A stretch of 64,000 nt of DNA from contig JACKGE010000001.1 in NCBI GenBank assembly GCA_020632155.1, positions 314,285-378,284 on the forward strand, in the 5' to 3' direction. Below are positions 1 to 58,151 of the stretch, one piece after another. The DNA is from Candidatus Nomurabacteria bacterium (GTDB taxonomy: Bacteria; Patescibacteriota; Minisyncoccia; Phycocordibacterales; UBA918). How positions within the stretch are numbered: the stretch's first letter is position 1; each line of letters opens with the position of its first letter. A program made the position numbers and the translations under genes. Under the pieces are notes generated by a model. That model did not search any database. It was not told the origin of the DNA and was given only the letters and a program-made list of their open reading frames with translations.

Positions 1-426
1 CGTACCAAAGCAAATATCAAAGTGCGTCAGCCATTGCCCAAGCTCAGTATCAATATCGAACTGGAACCACAGTACGCCGAAATTGTTGCCGATGAGATCA
101 ATGTCAAGGAAGTGGTAAGTAACACACATCAATCAGAGCGGGCAGTTCTTGATACTGAAGTGACGCCAGAACTCAAAGCTGAAGGTGACGCTCGCGAACT
201 CATCCGTGCTATCCAAGATATGCGTAAGCAAGCCAACCTGCAGCCGTCTGATCGTATCGCTCTTACCATTCAGACCTCTGATGGTGGGGAAGCAATTGTG
301 CGTGGTTTTGAAGCGGAGATACAAAAGACTGTCGGAGCAGATAGTATTACCTTTGGTGATGCTGATGGTTCTGAGGTGCAGGCCAGTGAGCACTCGTTCA
401 CTATTGAGTTAACAAAAACGGCCTAA
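1..426 (+). CDS. ileS: Isoleucyl-tRNA synthetase, C-terminal fragment (5' end outside window)
   Basis: Frame open from the window edge. The C-terminal region (...NVKEV...AVLDTEVTPELKAEGDARELIRAIQDMRKQANLQPSDRI...) matches the conserved IleRS C-terminal anticodon-binding tail. Confidence 0.55.
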   Translation, partial: RTKANIKVRQPLPKLSINIELEPQYAEIVADEINVKEVVSNTHQSERAVLDTEVTPELKAEGDARELIRAIQDMRKQANLQPSDRIALTIQTSDGGEAIVRGFEAEIQKTVGADSITFGDADGSEVQASEHSFTIELTKTA

Positions 427-5328: not shown

Positions 5329-6771
5329 ATGTCTGAGCCAAAACCGCGTTATATAACCACCACCTTGCCCTATGTAAATGCTGACCCGCACGTTGGTTTT
5401 GCTCTGGAGGCAGTGCAAGCTGATGCCCTCGCACGTTACTGGCGGCTTATGGGCCACGAAGTCTTTTTCAACACTGGTACTGACGAGCATGGCCAGAAAA
5501 TTGCCCAGAAGGCTGACGAAGCAGGGAGGGATAGGCAAGAGTATGTAGATCACTATGCTGGGCAGTTTAATAAGCTCAAAGAAGCCCTCAACCTCTCTTA
5601 CGATCATTTTATTCGCACTACTGATGACGCCCACAAAGCAGCAGCGCAGGCTATCTGGCAGAAGTGTGCCGAGAACGGCGACATCTACAAAAAGAAATAC
5701 AAAGGCCTCTACTGTGTTGGCTGCGAGTTGTTTGTCCGCGAGAGCGACCTTGTTGATGGCAAGTGTCCGCACCACCCTAACCAAGAGCTGCAAGAGATCG
5801 AGGAAGAAAATTACTTCTTTGCACTTTCTAAGTACCAGTCGTACCTAGAGGAGTATCTCAGTGGCGATAGCGTTACGCCGGACTGGCAGCGAGCGTGGGC
5901 GCTAGAGTTTGTGAAAAAGGGTCTTGAGGACTTTAGTATCTCGCGCGAACGTGCTCGCCTCGATTGGGGTGTGCCGGTACCAAATGACGAGGATCAGGTC
6001 ATGTATGTGTGGTTTGATGCCCTTACTAACTACATCTCAACCCTCGGTTGGCCGGAGGATAGCGAGGGAACGTTTAAGAAGTTTTGGACTGACGGAGAGA
6101 CACTGCAGCTAGCCGGCAAAGACCAAGTACGTTTCCAGTCCATCATGTGGCAAGCAATGCTGAAAAGTGCCGGTGTGAAAGCCACTGACAAGGTCTTTTA
6201 CCATGGCTTTATCACGAGCGGTGGCCAGAAGATGAGCAAGAGCGTTGGTAACGTCATTTCACCGTACGAACTCGTGGAGCGTTATGGTACCGATGCGGCG
6301 CGGTACATTCTCCTGCGGCACGTGCATCCAACTGACGACTCGGACCTCACATGGGAAAAAATGGATGAGTGGTACACCGCCAACTTGGTTAATGGCCTTG
6401 GCAACCTCACCGCTCGTATCATGAAAATGGCTGAGACACACCTTGATAGTCCGATTGAAAAACCAGAGGTTGGTCAGTTCGATGAAGCGTATCTAAAAGC
6501 TCTTGATGAGTACGATTTCATGACTGCGTGTGATTTTGTCTGGAAGAAAGTAGGAGAGCTTGATGAGAAGATAACTGAGACCGAGCCATTCAAGTTGGTA
6601 AAAACTGATAAAGAAGCTGCGGTGAAAATAATCAAAGAGTTGGTTCACGATCTTTATATCGTTGGTCGCATGCTATTTCCACTGATGCCCAAGGCTAACG
6701 TAGCGATTAAAGAAGCCGTCCTCGCCAACAAAAAACCAGACAACCTCTTTAACCGTTTAGAAGATAAGTAG
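5329..6771 (+). CDS. metG: Methionyl-tRNA synthetase
   Basis: TTTLPYVNADPHVGFALEAVQADALARYWRLMGHEVFFNTGTDEHGQKI (HIGH-type motif) ...KMSKSVGN (KMSKS motif). Confidence 0.9.
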   Translation: MSEPKPRYITTTLPYVNADPHVGFALEAVQADALARYWRLMGHEVFFNTGTDEHGQKIAQKADEAGRDRQEYVDHYAGQFNKLKEALNLSYDHFIRTTDDAHKAAAQAIWQKCAENGDIYKKKYKGLYCVGCELFVRESDLVDGKCPHHPNQELQEIEEENYFFALSKYQSYLEEYLSGDSVTPDWQRAWALEFVKKGLEDFSISRERARLDWGVPVPNDEDQVMYVWFDALTNYISTLGWPEDSEGTFKKFWTDGETLQLAGKDQVRFQSIMWQAMLKSAGVKATDKVFYHGFITSGGQKMSKSVGNVISPYELVERYGTDAARYILLRHVHPTDDSDLTWEKMDEWYTANLVNGLGNLTARIMKMAETHLDSPIEKPEVGQFDEAYLKALDEYDFMTACDFVWKKVGELDEKITETEPFKLVKTDKEAAVKIIKELVHDLYIVGRMLFPLMPKANVAIKEAVLANKKPDNLFNRLEDK

Positions 6772-6798
6772 TTTATGTATCATATATGATACATAAAC
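6771..6798. repeat. 28-bp perfect palindrome GTTTATGTATCATATATGATACATAAAC (family B)
   Basis: Direct reading. Sits between the metG stop and the next gene. Core TATGTATCATATATGATACATA recurs at 48211-48234. Confidence 0.8.
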
Positions 6799-8266: not shown

Positions 8267-8300
8267 ATCAGGATACAAGAACTGCTCCAATTAAAGACAA

Positions 8301-8356
8301 CACAGCGCCCTCTTTATATAGTACGGTTAACCGTACTATATAAAGAGGGCGCTGTG
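8301..8356. terminator. 56-bp perfect palindrome between convergent genes. Likely a bidirectional terminator hairpin whose core is family-A palindrome TATAGTACGGTTAACCGTACTATA
   Basis: CACAGCGCCCTCTTTATATAGTACGGTT|AACCGTACTATATAAAGAGGGCGCTGTG is self-complementary end to end. Lies between the stop of 8021-8266 (+) and the stop of 8372-8782 (-). Confidence 0.6.
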
Positions 8357-8371
8357 TTAAAAATGTTCTTG

Positions 8372-8782
8372 CTATTCAACTCGTTGTAATACAGACTTCC
8401 AGCGACCCCGTCCACGCGGAGGCATTCCTGCTTGTAATATTATTTCTAAAACTTCCCAAAACTTTCGATAGTCAGACTTGTTTTGTTTTAATATCGTTTC
8501 GATGTGTTTGTACCGACCACATTCATAATCTAAACGTATCTTCTCAGCGGTTGACGGACTGAGTTGTAGTAATTGCCATACGCGATAAGAGGAATTACCT
8601 TCAATGAACATTGTTATCGCAGCCAATCTTTTGATCAGCATTATTTTTTCTTCAGGCCCAAGCAAATCGTCAAAAAAATGCACTGCTGAGTTAACATTTA
8701 AGTCAGCCACCACTTTTCCAAATTGTTGGTATAGCTTATCAAATTCAGTCGCAGGGAGCTTTCTCTTCGAGACATTGGTCAT
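8372..8782 (-). CDS. TrpR/YerC/YecD-like helix-turn-helix DNA-binding protein
   Basis: ...EEKIMLIKRLAAITMFIEGNSSYRVWQLLQLSPSTAEKIR... resembles the TrpR-like (YerC) HTH. Flanked by family-A palindromes: 5 nt upstream of the start, and inside the downstream terminator. Confidence 0.5.
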   Translation of the reverse strand: MTNVSKRKLPATEFDKLYQQFGKVVADLNVNSAVHFFDDLLGPEEKIMLIKRLAAITMFIEGNSSYRVWQLLQLSPSTAEKIRLDYECGRYKHIETILKQNKSDYRKFWEVLEIILQAGMPPRGRGRWKSVLQRVE

Positions 8783-8786
8783 AAAT

Positions 8787-8812
8787 TTATAGTACGGTTA
8801 ACCGTACTATAA
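8787..8812. promoter_or_regulatory. 26-bp perfect palindrome TTATAGTACGGTTAACCGTACTATAA; candidate operator 5 nt upstream of the TrpR-like gene start
   Basis: Direct reading. Same core as 8301-8356 and 55391-55412. Confidence 0.5.
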
Positions 8813-41161: not shown

Positions 41162-42343
41162 CTACATGGCTGCCTCAGCCTCAAAACGTGGGGGAGTAGG
41201 GTCGTTTTCGTAGATGGCGAGGGTGCCACCGACCATTTTGGCAATGCTAAACACCTCACCGCGTGCGAGCGCTGCTGCAGCGTACGCTGCTCGCTGTGCC
41301 GTATCGTGATACAGCTCAGCAATTGCCTGTGCCAGCGCCTCACTGTCCCCTGAGGGGATTAATAACCCCTCAACTTTGTCTGTGATGATCTCGGGAATGC
41401 CACCCACATTGCTTGCAATCACGGGCACGCCAGCCTGACAAGCCTCAATGGGTACGTAGGGAAATCCCTCACTGCGTGATGGCAAAACAAACACATCAGC
41501 GGCCTTGAGATACTGCGCGGCTTCGTCGATTGCACCAAGTAAAAAGACATGTGTCGCCAGGCCATGTGTAGCAATAAGGGCCTGCAGATTGTTGCGCTCA
41601 TCCCCGTCGCTGATGATTAGGTGACGGATTGGTAGTTTGTCCGCTGCAAGTTTTGCCATAGCTTCTATAGCCACATTATGTTGTTTGACTGGATGAAGTT
41701 CACCAATGGTGATGCTCCAAAAATCATCTTGGTACTGCTCGAGTTCAGGTGCGTAACCCATTAGGACACGTCTCGAACGATCTTTGGACTGTAGTGTAGC
41801 GGCTGCGCGACCGTTGTATACAACGGTCATCTTACGCTCTGCCCCCAACCATGCAAGCTGGCTCTTCAGCGTATGAGAGACAGCAATCGTTTGATGGCTG
41901 CCAATGACCGTTAACCAATGGAATAGTTTTAGCACTATTCGAGATAGTGCATTACGATTTTCATTAAAGGCCCAGCCGTGAGCGGTGAAAATGATACGCG
42001 GCACACCAAGTATGCGGCCCATCATGACACCTAAGAGGCCGGCTTTGGAACTGTTGATATGAAAGATATCAGGGTCCTCGTCTTTGATAAGGGAACCAAT
42101 TTGCCAGAGTGCCTGCAGTTCTTTAATGATAGATATGTCTCTTTGTAGTGCAGGAATAGAAAGTACTTTAAGACCGGCAGCTTCCAGCTTTTCTGTAAGC
42201 GGCCCGTTGCCACCAAGCGCTACGACCACCTCATACTGTTCGGTTGGCAGGTTAGTAGCAAGATCATAGACATAGCGCTGGGCTCCGCCAAAGTTGGACT
42301 TTGTTATAAGAAATAAAACCTTTTTCTTTCTTTGTTCGTTCAT
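41162..42343 (-). CDS. Glycosyltransferase family 4 (GT-B)
   Basis: ...LGAIDEAAQYLKAADVFVLPSRSEGFPYVPIEACQAGVPVIASNVGGIPEII... (EX7E-type GT4 C-terminal domain). Confidence 0.8.
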   Translation of the reverse strand: MNEQRKKKVLFLITKSNFGGAQRYVYDLATNLPTEQYEVVVALGGNGPLTEKLEAAGLKVLSIPALQRDISIIKELQALWQIGSLIKDEDPDIFHINSSKAGLLGVMMGRILGVPRIIFTAHGWAFNENRNALSRIVLKLFHWLTVIGSHQTIAVSHTLKSQLAWLGAERKMTVVYNGRAAATLQSKDRSRRVLMGYAPELEQYQDDFWSITIGELHPVKQHNVAIEAMAKLAADKLPIRHLIISDGDERNNLQALIATHGLATHVFLLGAIDEAAQYLKAADVFVLPSRSEGFPYVPIEACQAGVPVIASNVGGIPEIITDKVEGLLIPSGDSEALAQAIAELYHDTAQRAAYAAAALARGEVFSIAKMVGGTLAIYENDPTPPRFEAEAAM

Positions 42344-42491
42344 TGGTGCCTATAGTAACACTATTTATAAGTGACTAGTTACGACACTTGCTTGCCCGCG
42401 CACTAACTGGTCAGACTGCGCAAAAGCGCGTTAATTCACAAGTGAATTAACAGTCTTACCGTTAGTGTGCGGGCTTGCTAATTTACCCTGA

Positions 42492-47769: not shown

Positions 47770-47820
47770 GCAAAAACAGATAACAAAAATAAGTCTTTGT
47801 ATCCTATAGGATACAAAGAC

Positions 47821-48210
47821 TTATTTTTGTTTCCACATTTCTTCTATCAATGAAAAAAGTAAAAAGTGAGTAGGGTATTTTTTCTTAAGATTTTCATACG
47901 AAAAAGGCGGGACAAATTTTGAGGCATGTTTTTTACTTACACGTTGGTTATTTTTTTGATAAGAAGAAACATATTCACTAAATTCATTTTCCAACCAACG
48001 ATTCATCTGAGCAAATGTGTTTGGGCTTACCTGAAGCCGGTCATTAATTTCAAAACGTGTTTTACCAGACAAAATCGCTTGAGCAATAAGTATACGTCGA
48101 CCAAGTGCGATTTTTTCGCGCTCAGTCAATAGTCGAACAATGGTTTCAACTTCATTGGCGGTTGCAATTTCGAAAGCTTGTAGGGCAAGCTCGTCAATGT
48201 CTTTTTTCAT
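47821..48210 (-). CDS. TrpR/YerC/YecD-like HTH DNA-binding protein (second paralog)
   Basis: ...LTEREKIALGRRILIAQAILSGKTRFEINDRLQVSPNTFAQMNRWL... Family-B palindrome abuts its start codon. Confidence 0.55.
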   Translation of the reverse strand: MKKDIDELALQAFEIATANEVETIVRLLTEREKIALGRRILIAQAILSGKTRFEINDRLQVSPNTFAQMNRWLENEFSEYVSSYQKNNQRVSKKHASKFVPPFSYENLKKKYPTHFLLFSLIEEMWKQK

Positions 48211-48234
48211 CTATGTATCATATATGATACATAG
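48211..48234. promoter_or_regulatory. 24-bp perfect palindrome CTATGTATCATATATGATACATAG (family B) directly abutting the start of the TrpR-like gene
   Basis: Direct reading. Same core as 6771-6798. Confidence 0.5.
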
Positions 48235-48263
48235 AGATATATAAAATAAGTGGAGGAGTTAAT

Positions 48264-50605: not shown

Positions 50606-51049
50606 ACTGGCCACTGTTCACGGGAGTGAAGAACGCGTTTTTAAAGCGCGTTTCGAGTTTGGGTAAGTTCCTACTCGCACTGTCGGAGGGAGCAGCGTTT
50701 TTCGACAATACTCATCTGCACACATCAGCCAACAATTTATTTTTGTCTGATGTGTGCTGGTGAGGGTCATGTGTTTCAAAAGATTAATTGGAGAAACAGA
50801 TGATTTGAATAGATCAAATCAATCGACCTTATGATTGATTTGAGTACCAAGTTGTAATCAATTTATTTTGGTTATGACGGTACGCATCAGCAAGACAATT
50901 GAAATTTGTTTTTTCTTTTGTCTTATCCTTTAGGAGGTTCATTGAAGAGCGCTAACAGAGTACAGCGCACCGGAATGATGCATCTGCATGATTTCGATAG
51001 TAGATGAACCCAGGTAAGAACTACTTTAAGTAGATCCAAACCTGTCTTA

Positions 51050-52503
<1,454 letters not shown>

Positions 52504-52631
52504 AATTGGACACGTCGTGGTTGCTCTGGTAACAGAGTGACAACTCGCGGCTAATTGGTCGGTCTTATGTGCCTCAATTGAGCATGTAAGAGGTAATGAT
52601 ACTTGAACCTTTAGCTAGTATTTGACTGTAG

Positions 52632-54064: not shown

Positions 54065-54228
54065 GGCTTTTATCATGGTTGATTTTCGACTGCCCGCTTA
54101 CAGCGGCTAGTCAGATTGTCAGTATTTTTCACAAGTTCAAAATACTAGGCAACCTCTTGCGAAAGTGTCTGGTGCTCGGACAAAAAGTGAGCTTTATTTT
54201 TAAAGCGCTTTGCACTAGTATTACACCC

Positions 54229-55572
54229 ATGGATTTCTCGGAACAGTTCAAAGGCAAGAAGATAACGGTTATGGGGCTCGGTCTTTTGGGTCGGGGTGTT
54301 GGTGACGCAGCGTATTTAGCCGAATGTGGCGCAGAAGTGACGGTTACCGACCTCAAATCTGAGGAACAACTTACCGATTCGGTCGAAAAACTTAAATTGT
54401 ACCCAAACGTACGTTTTGCGCTCAACGGACACAAAGAAGAAGATTTTGAAAACGTTGATATGGTACTTGTCGCTGCTGGGGTGCCGTTTGACTCTCCATA
54501 TTTAGCTCATGCCCATAAGGCCGGTGTGCCATTGAAGCAAAGTGCGGCACTCTTTGCTGAGTTATCTGGCATTCCTATTATTGGCGTTACCGGTACCCGC
54601 GGTAAAAGTACGGTCACTGCTATGGTCCATCATGTTCTGTCGGTCACTACCGGTGAACACATCATTAAGGGCGGTAATGTGCGTGGTGTCTCTAATTTAC
54701 AGTTGCTCAAAGAAGTGAAAGAAGACTCGTTAGCGGTACTGGAGCTTGATTCATGGCAATTGCAAGGTTTTGGGTGGGCTGGTATTTCACCGCAGATCGT
54801 GGTCTTCACCAATTTCATGCCCGATCACATGAATTACTATAAGAATGATATGGACGCATACTTTACGGATAAAGCAAACATCTTTTTACACCAAAAAGAG
54901 AGTGGCGTGTTCATCACGGTGCCGGAGGTATTTGAACGAGCAAAAAAAATGGCAGGCACACTTGGTCAGGAGGTGGTGTTGGTGGATGATTCAACCTTGC
55001 CAGAGGACGTACTGCTTTCAATGCCAGGTGAGCACAATCGCCTCAATGCCGCTCTAGCGGTGGCGGCCCTTCGCGCTGTTAGCCTCACGGATGAGGAAAT
55101 ATTTACTGGTCTTGCCAGTTTCTCTGGCGTTGAAGGTCGCTTGCAACTGCTCACAACCGTCGACAATGTTCGTATCTACAACGACAACAATGCCACTACA
55201 CCGCAGGCCACCGTAGCGGCTCTTGAAGCCCTTGATGTTGGCAACAAAAACATTGTGCTTATTGCGGGCGGCGCTGATAAAGGCCTTGAACTACTGCAGT
55301 TAACTGCGGCAATCAGGGAGCACTGTAAGCAAACAATACTTATCCCGGGTACCGGTACAGAGAGATTGCTCGCAGCTCTAGAGGGGGGAAATAGTACGGT
55401 TAACCGTACTATAGCAGTAGAAGATTTGCAGCAGGCAGTAGAAGAGGCGCGGCTGGCAGCCAAAAATGGCGATATTATCCTCTTTAGCCCAGCCTTCTCA
55501 TCATTCAGTCAGTACAATAATGAATATGAGCGTAATGATGAATTTGTTGAGTTAGTGAAAAAATATGAGTAA
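54229..55572 (+). CDS. murD: UDP-N-acetylmuramoyl-L-alanine--D-glutamate ligase
   Basis: MDFSEQFKGKKITVMGLGLLGRGVGDAAYLAECGAEVTVTD...IIGVTGTRGKSTVTAM... Start trimmed: the track ORF's first 127 codons read through tRNA fragments and repeats. Family-A palindrome embedded in-frame at 55391-55412. Confidence 0.85.
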   Translation: MDFSEQFKGKKITVMGLGLLGRGVGDAAYLAECGAEVTVTDLKSEEQLTDSVEKLKLYPNVRFALNGHKEEDFENVDMVLVAAGVPFDSPYLAHAHKAGVPLKQSAALFAELSGIPIIGVTGTRGKSTVTAMVHHVLSVTTGEHIIKGGNVRGVSNLQLLKEVKEDSLAVLELDSWQLQGFGWAGISPQIVVFTNFMPDHMNYYKNDMDAYFTDKANIFLHQKESGVFITVPEVFERAKKMAGTLGQEVVLVDDSTLPEDVLLSMPGEHNRLNAALAVAALRAVSLTDEEIFTGLASFSGVEGRLQLLTTVDNVRIYNDNNATTPQATVAALEALDVGNKNIVLIAGGADKGLELLQLTAAIREHCKQTILIPGTGTERLLAALEGGNSTVNRTIAVEDLQQAVEEARLAAKNGDIILFSPAFSSFSQYNNEYERNDEFVELVKKYE

Positions 55573-56848
55573 TTACAAGCGTATACATTTCATTGGCGTT
55601 GGTGGGATTGGGATGTCGGGTTTGGCGCGGCTGTATTTGCATGAGGGCGCTGTGGTAAGTGGTAGCGACCGCGCGCTCTCTGACCTCACGAGAGCGCTCG
55701 AAGCCGAGGGCGTGACTTTTTTTGCTGAACAAAGCGCAGAGAATATTACAAACGATATTGATTTGGTGGTGTACACCGAGGCGATGAGTAAAGATCATCC
55801 GGAGATGACGGCGGCGCGTGCCCTCGGAGTGCCGATGATGAACTACTTTGAGGCACTGGGTGCCGTGGCCAATGAGTACTACCTCATTGCAGTAGCTGGA
55901 ACACACGGCAAGACCACCACCACTGCCATGCTGATAGACATTTTTGAGCAAGCCGGTCTCGATCCTACTGCCATCGTTGGTTCGCTTCGCAGTAGTACTG
56001 GCAAGAATTATCGAGCGGGGAAGAGCAAGTATTTTATCGTTGAGGCCTGTGAGTATAAACGGGACTTTTTAAGTCTTAACCCCGATGTGCTCGTTATTAC
56101 TAATATTGAGCCGGAGCATCTCGATTACTACCACGACCTTGCTGATATTCAGTCAGCCTTTACTGAACTAGCCACTAAGGTGCCAGCAGAAGGCGCAATC
56201 ATCGCGAGCGTGCGTGATGCCAATGTAGCGCCGGTCCTTGAGGGTGTTGCGGCCACAGTGATCGATTATAAAGACAGCGTTGACCTAGTGTCACCAATGA
56301 AGCAACCCGGACTTCATAATCGCTTTAATGCCGCCGCAGCGCGCGCGGCAGCAACTTTTTGCGGTGTCGCAGAGGGCGTTGCAGGGCAGGCAACCAGCGA
56401 GTTTGCCGGCACGTGGCGTCGCTTTGAATACAAAGGCGAGTTACAAGGGGCGCCTATCTACGATGATTACGCGCATCACCCAACGGAACTGGCAGCCACT
56501 ATGGCCGGTGCGCGTGAGCTGTATCCAGACAAGAACTTGGTGGTAGTGTTTCAGCCACACCTCTATTCACGCACGGCTGAGCAGTTTGATGGTTTTGTAG
56601 CAGAACTCTCTAAAGGCGATCAAGTGATTTTGACCCATGTCTACGATGCGCGCGATACCGGTGGTGGGGTAACAGGAGAGCGGTTGGCAGTAGCAGTGAA
56701 AGAGAAAAACCCGAATACGGAGTATTTTGAAAAGTTTGATGATATTGTGGCAAATCTCAAGGAGACCATTATAAAAGATGACGTAGTGCTTGTAGTGGGA
56801 GCGGGGGATGTTTCGAGTGTCGCTACCAATTTGACAAAACACTTTTAA
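55565..56848 (+). CDS. murC: UDP-N-acetylmuramate--L-alanine ligase
   Basis: IHFIGVGGIGMSGLARLY...AVAGTHGKTTTTAML... Confidence 0.9.
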   Translation: MSNYKRIHFIGVGGIGMSGLARLYLHEGAVVSGSDRALSDLTRALEAEGVTFFAEQSAENITNDIDLVVYTEAMSKDHPEMTAARALGVPMMNYFEALGAVANEYYLIAVAGTHGKTTTTAMLIDIFEQAGLDPTAIVGSLRSSTGKNYRAGKSKYFIVEACEYKRDFLSLNPDVLVITNIEPEHLDYYHDLADIQSAFTELATKVPAEGAIIASVRDANVAPVLEGVAATVIDYKDSVDLVSPMKQPGLHNRFNAAAARAAATFCGVAEGVAGQATSEFAGTWRRFEYKGELQGAPIYDDYAHHPTELAATMAGARELYPDKNLVVVFQPHLYSRTAEQFDGFVAELSKGDQVILTHVYDARDTGGGVTGERLAVAVKEKNPNTEYFEKFDDIVANLKETIIKDDVVLVVGAGDVSSVATNLTKHF

Positions 56849-56887: not shown

Positions 56888-57370
56888 ATGAAATTTTTGT
56901 ATGGAGCGACCCGTTGGGTCATTCTTGTTGGGCCAGTTGCGTTGAAGATAGCGCGTTTCCGCCCGTACCGCTTAGTTGCAAGACTTTTTGTACATGCTCG
57001 TAATGGCGAAGTAAGGATGCGACTCGACAAATTCGACAGTCGTTCCAAGCTCGTCGCCGTCTGCAGGTACATTGGGGCAGGTGTGTCGGCCAACCGAGCT
57101 GAATACCATTTGTACAGGGAAGATGAGCGGCTCCGTCTGATACCGGTGAAAAGTATCTGGTTCTGGGGTCTTGTTCTTGTTCAGTCGCGGGGCGATGCAA
57201 TTCCTCACGACTGTGCCGAAGAGGCCACAAGTCATCCTATGTGGTCAGCGATGCTGGAAGAGGCTGGTTCTGCAAATAAAGCGCTAAAGCAATTTTGTCT
57301 CTTCAACGGACGACCACATCTCGCTGACTATGGCAGATGGGACCTAGAAGGAGTAATCAAAACTGTTTGA
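56888..57370 (+). CDS. Hypothetical basic R/W-rich protein with a strong GGGAGGG SD (atypical for this genome)
   Basis: 160-aa ORF, ~52% GC, cagGGAGGGtccaATG. Confidence 0.35.
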   Translation: MKFLYGATRWVILVGPVALKIARFRPYRLVARLFVHARNGEVRMRLDKFDSRSKLVAVCRYIGAGVSANRAEYHLYREDERLRLIPVKSIWFWGLVLVQSRGDAIPHDCAEEATSHPMWSAMLEEAGSANKALKQFCLFNGRPHLADYGRWDLEGVIKTV

Positions 57371-57443: not shown

Positions 57444-58151
57444 ATGGAAGAGAAAGGAACGCTATCAATAGCTGCCACCCCGATCGGGAACCTTGAGGAC
57501 ATTACCTTGCGTGCTCTTCGAGTGCTCAAAGAAGCCGATTATGTACTCTGTGAAGATACGCGGGTAACGGGGAAGCTACTCAAACACTACAATATTGAAA
57601 CCAAGCTCAAACGCTATGACGCACACGCGAGCGAAAAAGTACACGAGCAAGTATTGGCTGATCTCGCAGCAGGGAAACATATTGCCTTGGTGAGCGATGC
57701 TGGTACGCCGAGCGTGAGTGATCCGGGGGTACTGTTGGTGTCAAACGCGCGCGCCGCAGGCGCGCGCGTTGAGACCATTCCCGGCCCTTCAGCGGTGACG
57801 GCAGCTTTCTCTATTGCCGGACTCACCGGCAACCAGTTCACTTTCTTGGGTTTTGTACCACAGAAAAAGGGACGTGAGACTTTTTTCAAAGCGCTGGCGG
57901 AGTATGATTATCCGGTTATTTTCTTTGAATCAACACACCGCATTATGAAAACCCTCCATGCTTTATCAGAAACGTATGGGGAAAATAGTACGATATATCG
58001 TACAATAATGGTGGCGAGAGAATTGACCAAAATGCATGAAGAAATGGTCCTAGGCACTCCCGAGGAGGTGTTGACCTATTTTGAAAGCTCTCCAGAAAAA
58101 CAGCGAGGGGAGTTTGTAGTCATTGTGGCCCCAGAAGGACGTGCGGTATAA
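57444..58151 (+). CDS. rsmI: 16S rRNA (cytidine1402-2'-O)-methyltransferase
   Basis: GTLSIAATPIGNLEDITLRALRVLKEADYVLCEDTRVTGKLLKHY...ARELTKMHEE. A 16-bp palindrome GTACGATATATCGTAC is embedded at 57987-58002. Confidence 0.85.
   Translation: MEEKGTLSIAATPIGNLEDITLRALRVLKEADYVLCEDTRVTGKLLKHYNIETKLKRYDAHASEKVHEQVLADLAAGKHIALVSDAGTPSVSDPGVLLVSNARAAGARVETIPGPSAVTAAFSIAGLTGNQFTFLGFVPQKKGRETFFKALAEYDYPVIFFESTHRIMKTLHALSETYGENSTIYRTIMVARELTKMHEEMVLGTPEEVLTYFESSPEKQRGEFVVIVAPEGRAV

Follow-up and report, generated by a model that had tools for sequence, protein, structure and literature searches.

The TrpR family of repressors includes TrpR and HisR, the latter being the YerC protein of B. subtilis; these proteins recognize 20-bp palindromes and are frequently autoregulatory, the TrpR operator has the consensus TGTAcTnGTnnACnAgTACA, and about half of hisR genes are preceded by a site of their own (PMC9413887). 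Here we describe a palindrome, designated family A, that brackets a gene for a TrpR/YerC-like helix-turn-helix protein and also lies in-frame inside murD, with a related palindrome inside rsmI, in a 64-kb stretch of DNA from Candidatus Nomurabacteria (contig JACKGE010000001.1, positions 314,285 to 378,284). This stretch is called the window, and all coordinates are those of the whole window. The host is a member of the Paceibacteria, within the candidate phyla radiation (CPR). Bacteria of this radiation cannot be grown in pure culture, and their transcription factors are very few; to our knowledge, the group to which the host belongs probably lacks amino-acid biosynthesis genes.

Three other described systems resemble parts of this arrangement. 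At purB of E. coli, a site for the repressor PurR lies within the open reading frame (ORF) and acts as a roadblock, serving both the protein code and binding; the intragenic roadblock operators known to us are single sites. In the REPtron, species-specific short palindromes (repetitive extragenic palindromic sequences, REPs) flank the gene of the protein that recognizes them, the REP-associated tyrosine transposase (RAYT), and palindrome and protein appear to co-evolve. RAYTs are HUH/Y1 nucleases; REPs are imperfect palindromes that lie outside genes and number in the hundreds. Finally, Rickettsia palindromic elements (RPEs) measure about 100-150 bp and are multi-copy, with 44 insertions in one genome (PMC10969869). 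TrpR-family repressors with palindromic operators and autoregulation are already known, as are in-frame palindromic elements (RPEs; PMC10969869). In the literature we found no report of TrpR-like operator palindromes written in-frame into housekeeping genes, and a search of the literature on Patescibacteria/Parcubacteria palindromes returned nothing relevant.

The arrangement in the window shares with TrpR and HisR a small all-helical helix-turn-helix protein of TrpR-like fold (PF01371), a palindrome about 20 bp long in which GTAC-type half-sites enclose a GTTAAC-like centre, a site before the regulator's own gene, which implies autoregulation, and lineage-specific operator variants (PMC9413887). 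It differs from them in that the protein is about 135 residues long, with a conserved C-terminal extension (PPRGRGRWKS), where TrpR and HisR have fewer than 100-110 residues; in that the GTAC half-sites are 8 bp apart, as compared with 10 bp in TrpR (PMC9413887); and in that the regulator gene is bracketed on both sides by sites that are perfect over 22-60 bp. Furthermore, whereas TrpR and HisR sites lie upstream of amino-acid biosynthesis genes, the sites here also occur in-frame in housekeeping genes. This last property is shared with RPEs, in which palindromic DNA likewise stands in-frame in unrelated housekeeping genes, adds a conserved peptide compatible with the fold and is patchy among orthologues (PMC10969869). 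Unlike RPEs, which have no dedicated binding-protein gene, the palindrome described here is perfect over 22-40 bp, appears to be present in few copies and is linked to a TrpR-like gene, and its codon phase is constant in the housekeeping-gene copies. The flanked protein, unlike a RAYT, is a helix-turn-helix protein without nuclease motifs and, unlike the single site of PurR at purB, the intragenic copies concern a family of genes, with recurrent loop positions and added codons.

Palindromes within murD, rsmI and the genes of relatives

The murD palindrome, ATAGTACGGTTAACCGTACTAT, was described in a first-pass annotation as a perfect, in-frame 22-bp palindrome, and this description holds; the host ORF is identified as murD by its match to TIGR01087 (Table 1). 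It is translated as GGNSTVNRTIAVE, encoding the residues N-S-T-V-N-R-T-I, and its centre, between GTT and AAC, falls on a codon boundary. The related palindrome in rsmI, GTACGATATATCGTAC, is likewise perfect and in-frame over the 16 bp described for it, although the coordinates first assigned to it (57987-58002) were one base off. It is translated as GENSTIYRTIMVA, with the core residues S-T-I-Y-R-T, and it keeps the family-A-like outer arms (GTACG) around a TATA centre where family A has TTAA; when widened to 22 bp (57985-58006) it contains one mismatched pair, an outer one. Judged by these features, the rsmI copy of the window is a diverged member of the family. Chance does not explain these palindromes. 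The 22-mer occurs in three exact copies in the window, as compared with no matches at up to three mismatches in 100 dinucleotide-preserving shuffles, and perfect palindromes of at least 16 bp number 13 in the window and 1.1 in mononucleotide shuffles. The two exact copies other than that of murD stand on either side of the TrpR/YerC-like gene.

We analyzed the corresponding genes of relatives, beginning with 80 murD loci from species representatives. Six of these carry a perfect palindrome at exactly this MurD loop. Three (L036, L043 and L048) have family A or symmetric variants of it, and the other three have palindromes of 34 bp (L042), 40 bp (L053) and 36 bp (L057), the differences between the last two being symmetric and near the centre. 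MurD-loop palindromes were additionally found in L001, L003 and seven metagenome loci. Most MurD orthologues have no palindrome and are 3-13 residues shorter at the loop; the loop of the window MurD is 3 residues longer than the common form, and the solved MurD structure 3lk7 is shorter by 3 residues there. Similarly, the RsmI span from FFESTHR to RELTK comprises 32 residues in most of 38 distinct relatives and 34-47 residues in those with a palindrome. It comprises 37 residues in the window, in line with the first-pass remark that this stretch is about 4 residues longer than its E. coli equivalent before ARELTK. Canonical family-A palindromes occupy the equivalent RsmI position in six loci (L023, L113, L188, L195, L003 and L169), two of which (L023 and L188) have the exact 22-mer of the window murD. 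Other in-frame hosts, again at recurrent positions that stay occupied between deeply diverged lineages, are LeuRS (where the editing domain begins), TruB, MurC, RNase HII and an MTS-type methyltransferase, and the palindromes in these housekeeping genes of relatives are perfect and 20-40 bp in length. The first-pass annotation had raised the question whether the 7-8 codons are lineage-specific insertions. The alignments support roughly eight codons that are lineage-specific, in-frame and dictated by the DNA; orthologues with the peptide always have the palindrome, and the same peptide was not seen without it.

In every copy within a recognizable housekeeping gene (MurD, RsmI, MurC, LeuRS, TruB, RNase HII and the methyltransferase), the centre of the palindrome lies at a codon boundary. 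With the centre so placed, the codons of the two arms are reverse complements of one another in pairs, which accounts for the shared peptide as well as for its variation (V/I; R/C/S). Changes between relatives are symmetric, with both arms altered together, and identical residues have identical codons in 7/8, 7/7 and 8/8 cases inside the palindrome, as compared with fractions of 0.30-0.42 elsewhere in murD. The single exception to the codon phase is a 42-bp family-A-centred palindrome (L199, 760-801) in a reverse-transcriptase (RVT_1) ORF, where the centre lies inside a codon and the palindrome is read in the other open frame (IVLLTVLY). In an AlphaFold2 (AF2) model of MurD, the insert comprises a loop (residues 391-397) and the start of a strand (398-401) following a helix (380-390), and the confidence of the model dips there. 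It had been asked whether the insert maps to a surface loop; the model places it in a variable-region loop and strand start, not in the conserved core.

Linkage of the palindrome to a TrpR/YerC-like gene

The protein encoded between the two other exact 22-mers is identical to KC722_02265 of a Candidatus Kaiserbacteria metagenome-assembled genome (MAG), where it lies on a contig of 486 kb. Several of its homologues bear the JGI name YerC and several have a precomputed PF01371 assignment, and the family profile matches the TrpR-like structures 3kor, 3g1c and 3frw (E 2.7e-5 to 8e-4). An AF2 model of the protein (pLDDT, the predicted local distance difference test, 85.6) was compared with the PDB using Foldseek; the best 26 matches are all TrpR or TrpR-like, with target-normalised TM-scores of 0.58-0.73. 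As modelled, the protein thus has the TrpR-like fold expected of a PF01371 member.

The association of the palindrome with this gene was followed through 16 distinct homologous loci from genomes and metagenomes. In these, the YerC-like gene stands in a conserved tatD / yerC-like / metG synteny, in which it diverges from tatD and usually converges with metG. A family-A palindrome is present upstream of the YerC-like gene in 16/16 loci, and every locus with a readable 3′ flank also has a downstream copy; these copies are mostly perfect, with one mismatch in L161 and a degraded copy in L214. In 13 of the 16 loci, the right arm closes with an outer hexamer (TAnnAT, seen as TACTAT, TAAGAT, TATCAT or TATGAT) whose end stands exactly 6 nt ahead of the ATG; a TTGnnn hexamer is found 16-17 bp upstream in 9 to 10 loci. 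In the window, on the minus strand, the TACTAT of the upstream site ends 6 nt before the ATG, with TTGCGT located 17 bp upstream of TACTAT. The palindrome would thereby fill the spacer and the -10 region of a predicted promoter whose transcript starts at the ATG, which is the classical position for autorepression. A scan for sigma-70-type promoters did not call the YerC-like promoter, which is deduced here from sequence geometry. The family-A site itself, perfectly palindromic over 22 bp and built of conserved GTAC arms around TTAA, has the form of a two-fold-symmetric operator of about 20 bp, and its apparent position in the promoter of the regulator's own gene is the one expected under autoregulation. 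The upstream site of the window is described as a putative operator overlapping the promoter of a leaderless transcript. The downstream palindrome occupies the gap that separates the 3′ end of the YerC-like gene from a convergent ORF, and as RNA it folds at -52 kcal/mol (z -14) and matches a terminator-like structure; it is a second putative operator copy, within a terminator-like hairpin.

A scan of metagenomes with ATAGTACNNTTAANNGTACTAT returned at least 120 loci. The four N positions are symmetric in 71 of the first 89 matches listed, as compared with 1/16 expected by chance, and the symmetric variants among the matches listed are AG/CT, GA/TC, GG/CC, TA/TA and TG/CA. Furthermore, the two inner variable bases vary across genomes and agree among the sites of one genome, the murD copy included. 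Specifically, GG is found at all three sites of the window, AG at murD and on either side of the YerC-like gene in Ga0222691_1000017, TG at 3/3 sites in ERZ1292625.9 and GG at 3/3 sites in Ga0156292_11. A few asymmetric sites are hybrids of known variants (L171, L161, L168, L181 and L103). The recognition helices that depart most from the rest, STVA(Q/R)L and STTERIK, accompany the arms that depart most, CTTACGG and CATACGA, respectively.

Table 1. Palindromes and associated genes of the window. Family B is a second family of palindromes, described in the last section.
Feature	Coordinates	Strand	Size or identification	Remarks
Family-A palindrome in murD	55391-55412		22 bp, perfect	in-frame in murD
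murD (UDP-N-acetylmuramoylalanine--D-glutamate ligase)	54214..55572	+	TIGR01087 E 1.5e-94; Pfam Mur_ligase_M, Mur_ligase_C, MurD-like_N	start approximate, ORF open from 53848
murC	55565..56848	+		start 153 bp 3′ of the murD palindrome
rsmI palindrome	57988-58003		16 bp, perfect	in-frame in rsmI
rsmI (16S rRNA C1402 2′-O-methyltransferase)	57444..58151	+	TIGR00096 E 1.4e-66
YerC/TrpR-like helix-turn-helix protein	8372..8782	-	136 aa	proposed cognate binding protein of family A
Upstream family-A palindrome	8787..8812		26 bp, perfect	22-mer at 8789-8810; directly 5′ of the YerC-like gene
Downstream palindrome	8299..8358		60 bp, perfect	family-A 22-mer at the centre (8318-8339); just past the YerC-like stop
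Second TrpR-like paralogue	47821..48210	-	129 aa	proposed cognate protein of family B
Family-B palindrome	48210..48235		TCTATGTATCATATATGATACATAGA	abuts the ATG of the second paralogue
Palindrome at the 3′ end of the second paralogue	47782..47831		50 bp, perfect; core GTATCCTATAGGATAC	family-B-like; overlaps the paralogue stop
Family-B palindrome	6771..6798		28 bp, perfect	followed after about 12 bp by the ATG (6810) of a Ser_hydrolase-family gene

Proposed intragenic operator copies and the alternatives

In our judgement, the family-A palindrome is very probably the cognate site of the YerC/TrpR-like protein. The fuller reading, in which family A is a predicted operator and the murD and rsmI copies are operator copies kept by selection for binding, is one that we favor with less assurance. 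Its basis is the anatomy of the palindromes, their linkage to the regulator gene, the conservation of the intragenic copies and the TrpR-like fold, and from these we infer binding of the protein to the palindrome, autorepression and any regulatory effect of the intragenic copies. In this model, a small dimeric helix-turn-helix protein of the TrpR/YerC family (the product of 8372..8782) would bind the family-A palindrome. Binding at its own promoter, over the spacer and the -10 region, would result in autorepression, and a second site would be held at the 3′ end of the regulator gene within the terminator-like hairpin. The murD and rsmI copies would be extra binding sites written into coding sequence, as would those of leuS, truB, murC, rnhB and the methyltransferase gene in relatives. 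The two-fold symmetry of the DNA, combined with a centre at the codon boundary, would force the peptide N-S-T-(V/I)-N-(R/C/S)-T-I, and only variable surface loops would tolerate such sites. Selection on the DNA itself would keep the intragenic copies, which would follow the operator variant of their own genome and which, once bound, may act as roadblocks or occupancy sites that couple housekeeping genes to the regulator.

If this reading is correct, it provides a DNA motif and a candidate regulon for an uncharacterised conserved family of CPR regulators, and a clear case of a protein-binding DNA signal that dictates eight residues in several essential enzymes. The differences between species within the peptide (R, C or S; V or I) would then stem from symmetric changes in the operator and not from protein function. 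It also predicts that KC722_02265 binds the 22-mer, that its transcript starts at the ATG and that polymerase pauses at the intragenic sites.

Several observations weigh against intragenic operator copies. Both TrpR-like proteins of the window fall under the 27-bit cutoff of Pfam Trp_repressor, with 16.9 bits for the 8372..8782 protein and 21.5 bits (E 2.6e-4) for the 47821..48210 protein. Perfect symmetry over 22-60 bp exceeds what an ordinary operator needs, and the arms of the 34-40 bp palindromes at the MurD site (L042, L053 and L057) are unrelated to family A. Palindrome-bearing murD alleles are scattered over a neighbour-joining MurD tree, a distribution that calls for numerous losses or for recurrent gains at a single site. 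The murD and rsmI palindromes of L003 differ from one another, and the rsmI copy of the window departs from the consensus of its own genome at 5/22 positions; as a present-day putative binding site, the rsmI copy is less assured than the one in murD. The intragenic sites share no position relative to downstream genes, and a scan found no sense-strand sigma-70-type promoter near the intragenic copies. Finally, a residue-to-base rule drawn from the first 14 proteins, in which the first variable base is A where the position equivalent to TrpR Thr83 is Asn, and G where it is Glu or Asp, failed in a predictive look-up, where a GG site accompanies Asn in L214 and AG accompanies Gly in L215. A looser co-variation of recognition helix and arms, as read from the sequences, is all that remains of this rule.

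The alternative that survives best, although we consider it rather doubtful, is that family A is a very short selfish repeat, mobile or self-propagating in the manner of REPs, MITEs (miniature transposable elements with inverted repeats) or RPEs, that the YerC-like protein recognizes the repeat and that the in-frame copies are tolerated hitch-hikers. Presence in-frame in unrelated ORFs, patchy among orthologues, is a property of RPEs and MITEs, and in-frame palindromic elements of this kind are known in Rickettsia (PMC10969869); here presence and absence are patchy at one loop across the MurD tree, and likewise in RsmI. Unrelated arm families occur at one MurD site (L042 and L053/L057), and the L042 arms resemble an intergenic palindrome of a related genome (L087, position 71). 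A single variant shared within each genome is what recent copying would give, a gene bracketed by two copies recalls the REPtron, and the host genes (LeuRS, TruB, RNase HII, MurC/D, RsmI and the reverse transcriptase) have no common function. It is the perfect symmetry over 22-60 bp, the unrelated long arms at the MurD site and the patchiness that keep this alternative alive. Membership in a known class of mobile repeat is a different matter. RPEs or MITEs are expected to span about 50-400 bp and to have both terminal inverted repeats and target-site duplications, a size not reached by units of 22-40 bp within genes, and copies appear to be few, with three exact copies and one variant in the window (3-4 in 64 kb) and at most three per 0.4-1 Mb contig among the matches listed. 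Alignments of occupied and empty murD alleles displayed neither a target-site duplication nor a clean insertion boundary, in a loop too diverged for boundaries to be mapped. There is no HUH/Y1 transposase of the REPtron type, as no transposase family appears among the profile and structure matches of the flanked YerC-like gene, and that gene is part of the syntenic core and is no mobile cassette. Furthermore, the palindrome is built into the predicted promoter at a fixed spacing, and orthologous intragenic sites persist over 60-75% protein identity with synonymous positions conserved. The first-pass annotation had likened the murD and rsmI palindromes to RPEs, with an operator within coding sequence as its alternative. 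Of that interpretation, the lineage-specific codons dictated by the DNA stand, but the RPE-like or MITE-like assignment is not supported, as the unit is 22-40 bp and not about 100-150 bp, shows no target-site duplication or associated transposase and appears to be low in copy number. Its operator alternative fits better, since the palindrome brackets a TrpR/YerC-family gene in every genome examined and overlaps the putative core promoter of that gene. Should the copies nevertheless be mobile, they would constitute the shortest family of in-frame palindromic elements described so far.

A broader proposal, which we put forward as speculation and think unlikely, is that the Paceibacteria (CPR bacteria) possess a system in which TrpR-fold proteins and perfect-palindrome sites co-evolve and in which sites are actively written in-frame into loops of essential cell-wall, translation and replication genes. 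Such a system might be a metabolite-responsive global roadblock regulon that throttles growth, or else a new ultra-short, coding-compatible selfish repeat recognized by a helix-turn-helix protein and not by a nuclease.

It is improbable, in our estimation, that the palindromes act as RNA or single-stranded DNA hairpins with a UUAA loop, functioning in termination, mRNA processing or stability, so that the symmetric changes would be compensatory. The folds are stable (the murD copy at -12.1 kcal/mol with z -4.1, the 60-bp copy at -52 kcal/mol), pairing is kept through changes between relatives, and the copies downstream of YerC-like genes have A-run/T-run flanks and match terminator criteria. 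However, the loop of a hairpin need not be self-complementary, whereas the centre here is TTAA or TATA in every case and the symmetry runs perfectly through it. The intragenic copies have no sense-strand T-run, and the murD copy, with no T-run after it, is a stem-loop without the U-run of a terminator; comparison of the palindrome hairpins with Rfam matched no family. A hairpin also leaves unexplained the single variant across all sites of a genome and the fixed 6-nt spacing between arm and ATG, with which the gene would have no leader to fold.

Least of all do we credit a purely mutational origin, by template switching in quasi-palindromes from a short TTAA-centred seed whose arms are copied without function, for although perfect palindromes of at least 16 bp are numerous in these genomes (82 in 906 kb, 26 of them TTAA-centred and 11 TATA-centred, up to 60 bp) and asymmetric intermediates exist (L171, L161, L168, L181 and L103), identical arms at unlinked loci, the linkage to the regulator gene in 16/16 loci and the promoter geometry go unexplained and the longest apparent extensions are assembly fold-backs, so that this process may contribute to arm identity but is not its sole cause. 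These extensions, in L146 (1-84, 84 bp) and L184 (1-108, 108 bp), were discarded as evidence of palindrome growth; both start at contig position 1 and are therefore treated as assembler fold-backs through a real shorter palindrome. Fold-back palindromes at contig ends call for caution when long palindromes are counted in metagenome contigs.

A second TrpR-like paralogue and other features

The second TrpR-like protein of the window is related to the first, whose profile it matches at E 7.5e-5, and its homologues carry PF01371. Like the first gene, it has palindromes at both ends, in this case of family B (Table 1). The L218 orthologue of this paralogue is bracketed by an identical family-B core, and a third copy there lies between convergent genes. 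The family-B palindrome at 6771..6798 begins directly after the stop of the preceding gene, and from its position upstream of the Ser_hydrolase gene that gene is a likely candidate member of the regulon of the second paralogue. A tblastn search for the family-B paralogue within the murD loci gave no match. Family-B-like palindromes also occur in-frame at about codon 60 of murC in two non-sister lineages, L010 (4784-4803, CACTATCATATATGATAGTG) and L015 (5457-5476, GACTATCATATATGATAGTC), where they encode (N/Q)TIIYDS(E/Q). Related peptides, STIIYDSE and TIYDSE, are present at the murD loop in the MurD homologues P0084 and P0097.

Three further perfect palindromes of the window belong to neither family. 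The first, GACCGTTGTATACAACGGTC at 41809-41828, is in-frame, encodes MTVVYNGR and has its TATA centre at a codon boundary; its host is a GT4 glycosyltransferase gene (41165..42349, minus strand), and it lies near the junction of two Pfam glycosyltransferase domains. The second, TGTACTTTAAAGGCCAGAGCATGCTCTGGCCTTTAAAGTACA, spans 42 bp at 19914-19955, just past an ORF that ends at 19884, and the third, CAACCGCAACCGCGGTTGCGGTTG, spans 24 bp at 37270-37293.

Between murC and rsmI, an ORF of 160 aa (56888-57370) has no Pfam match; the same slot holds a 107-aa ORF in L001 and metK in L003. The contigs of L020/L218 (JBLHQB010000002.1) and L014 (JBLIMJ010000016.1) are titled 'Patiriisocius sp.' and 'Acidimicrobiales bacterium', respectively, despite murD, rsmI and TrpR-like genes of Paceibacteria type, and are probably mis-binned or mislabelled MAG contigs. 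In the rRNA genes of the window, the 23S rRNA match extends over 3671 nt (32291-35961) as compared with a model of 2925 positions, which corresponds to about 750 nt of insertions. The 5S gene is located at 36054-36164 and the 16S gene at 51047-52506; the 23S and 5S genes thus lie about 15 kb from the 16S gene, and the rRNA operon is split.

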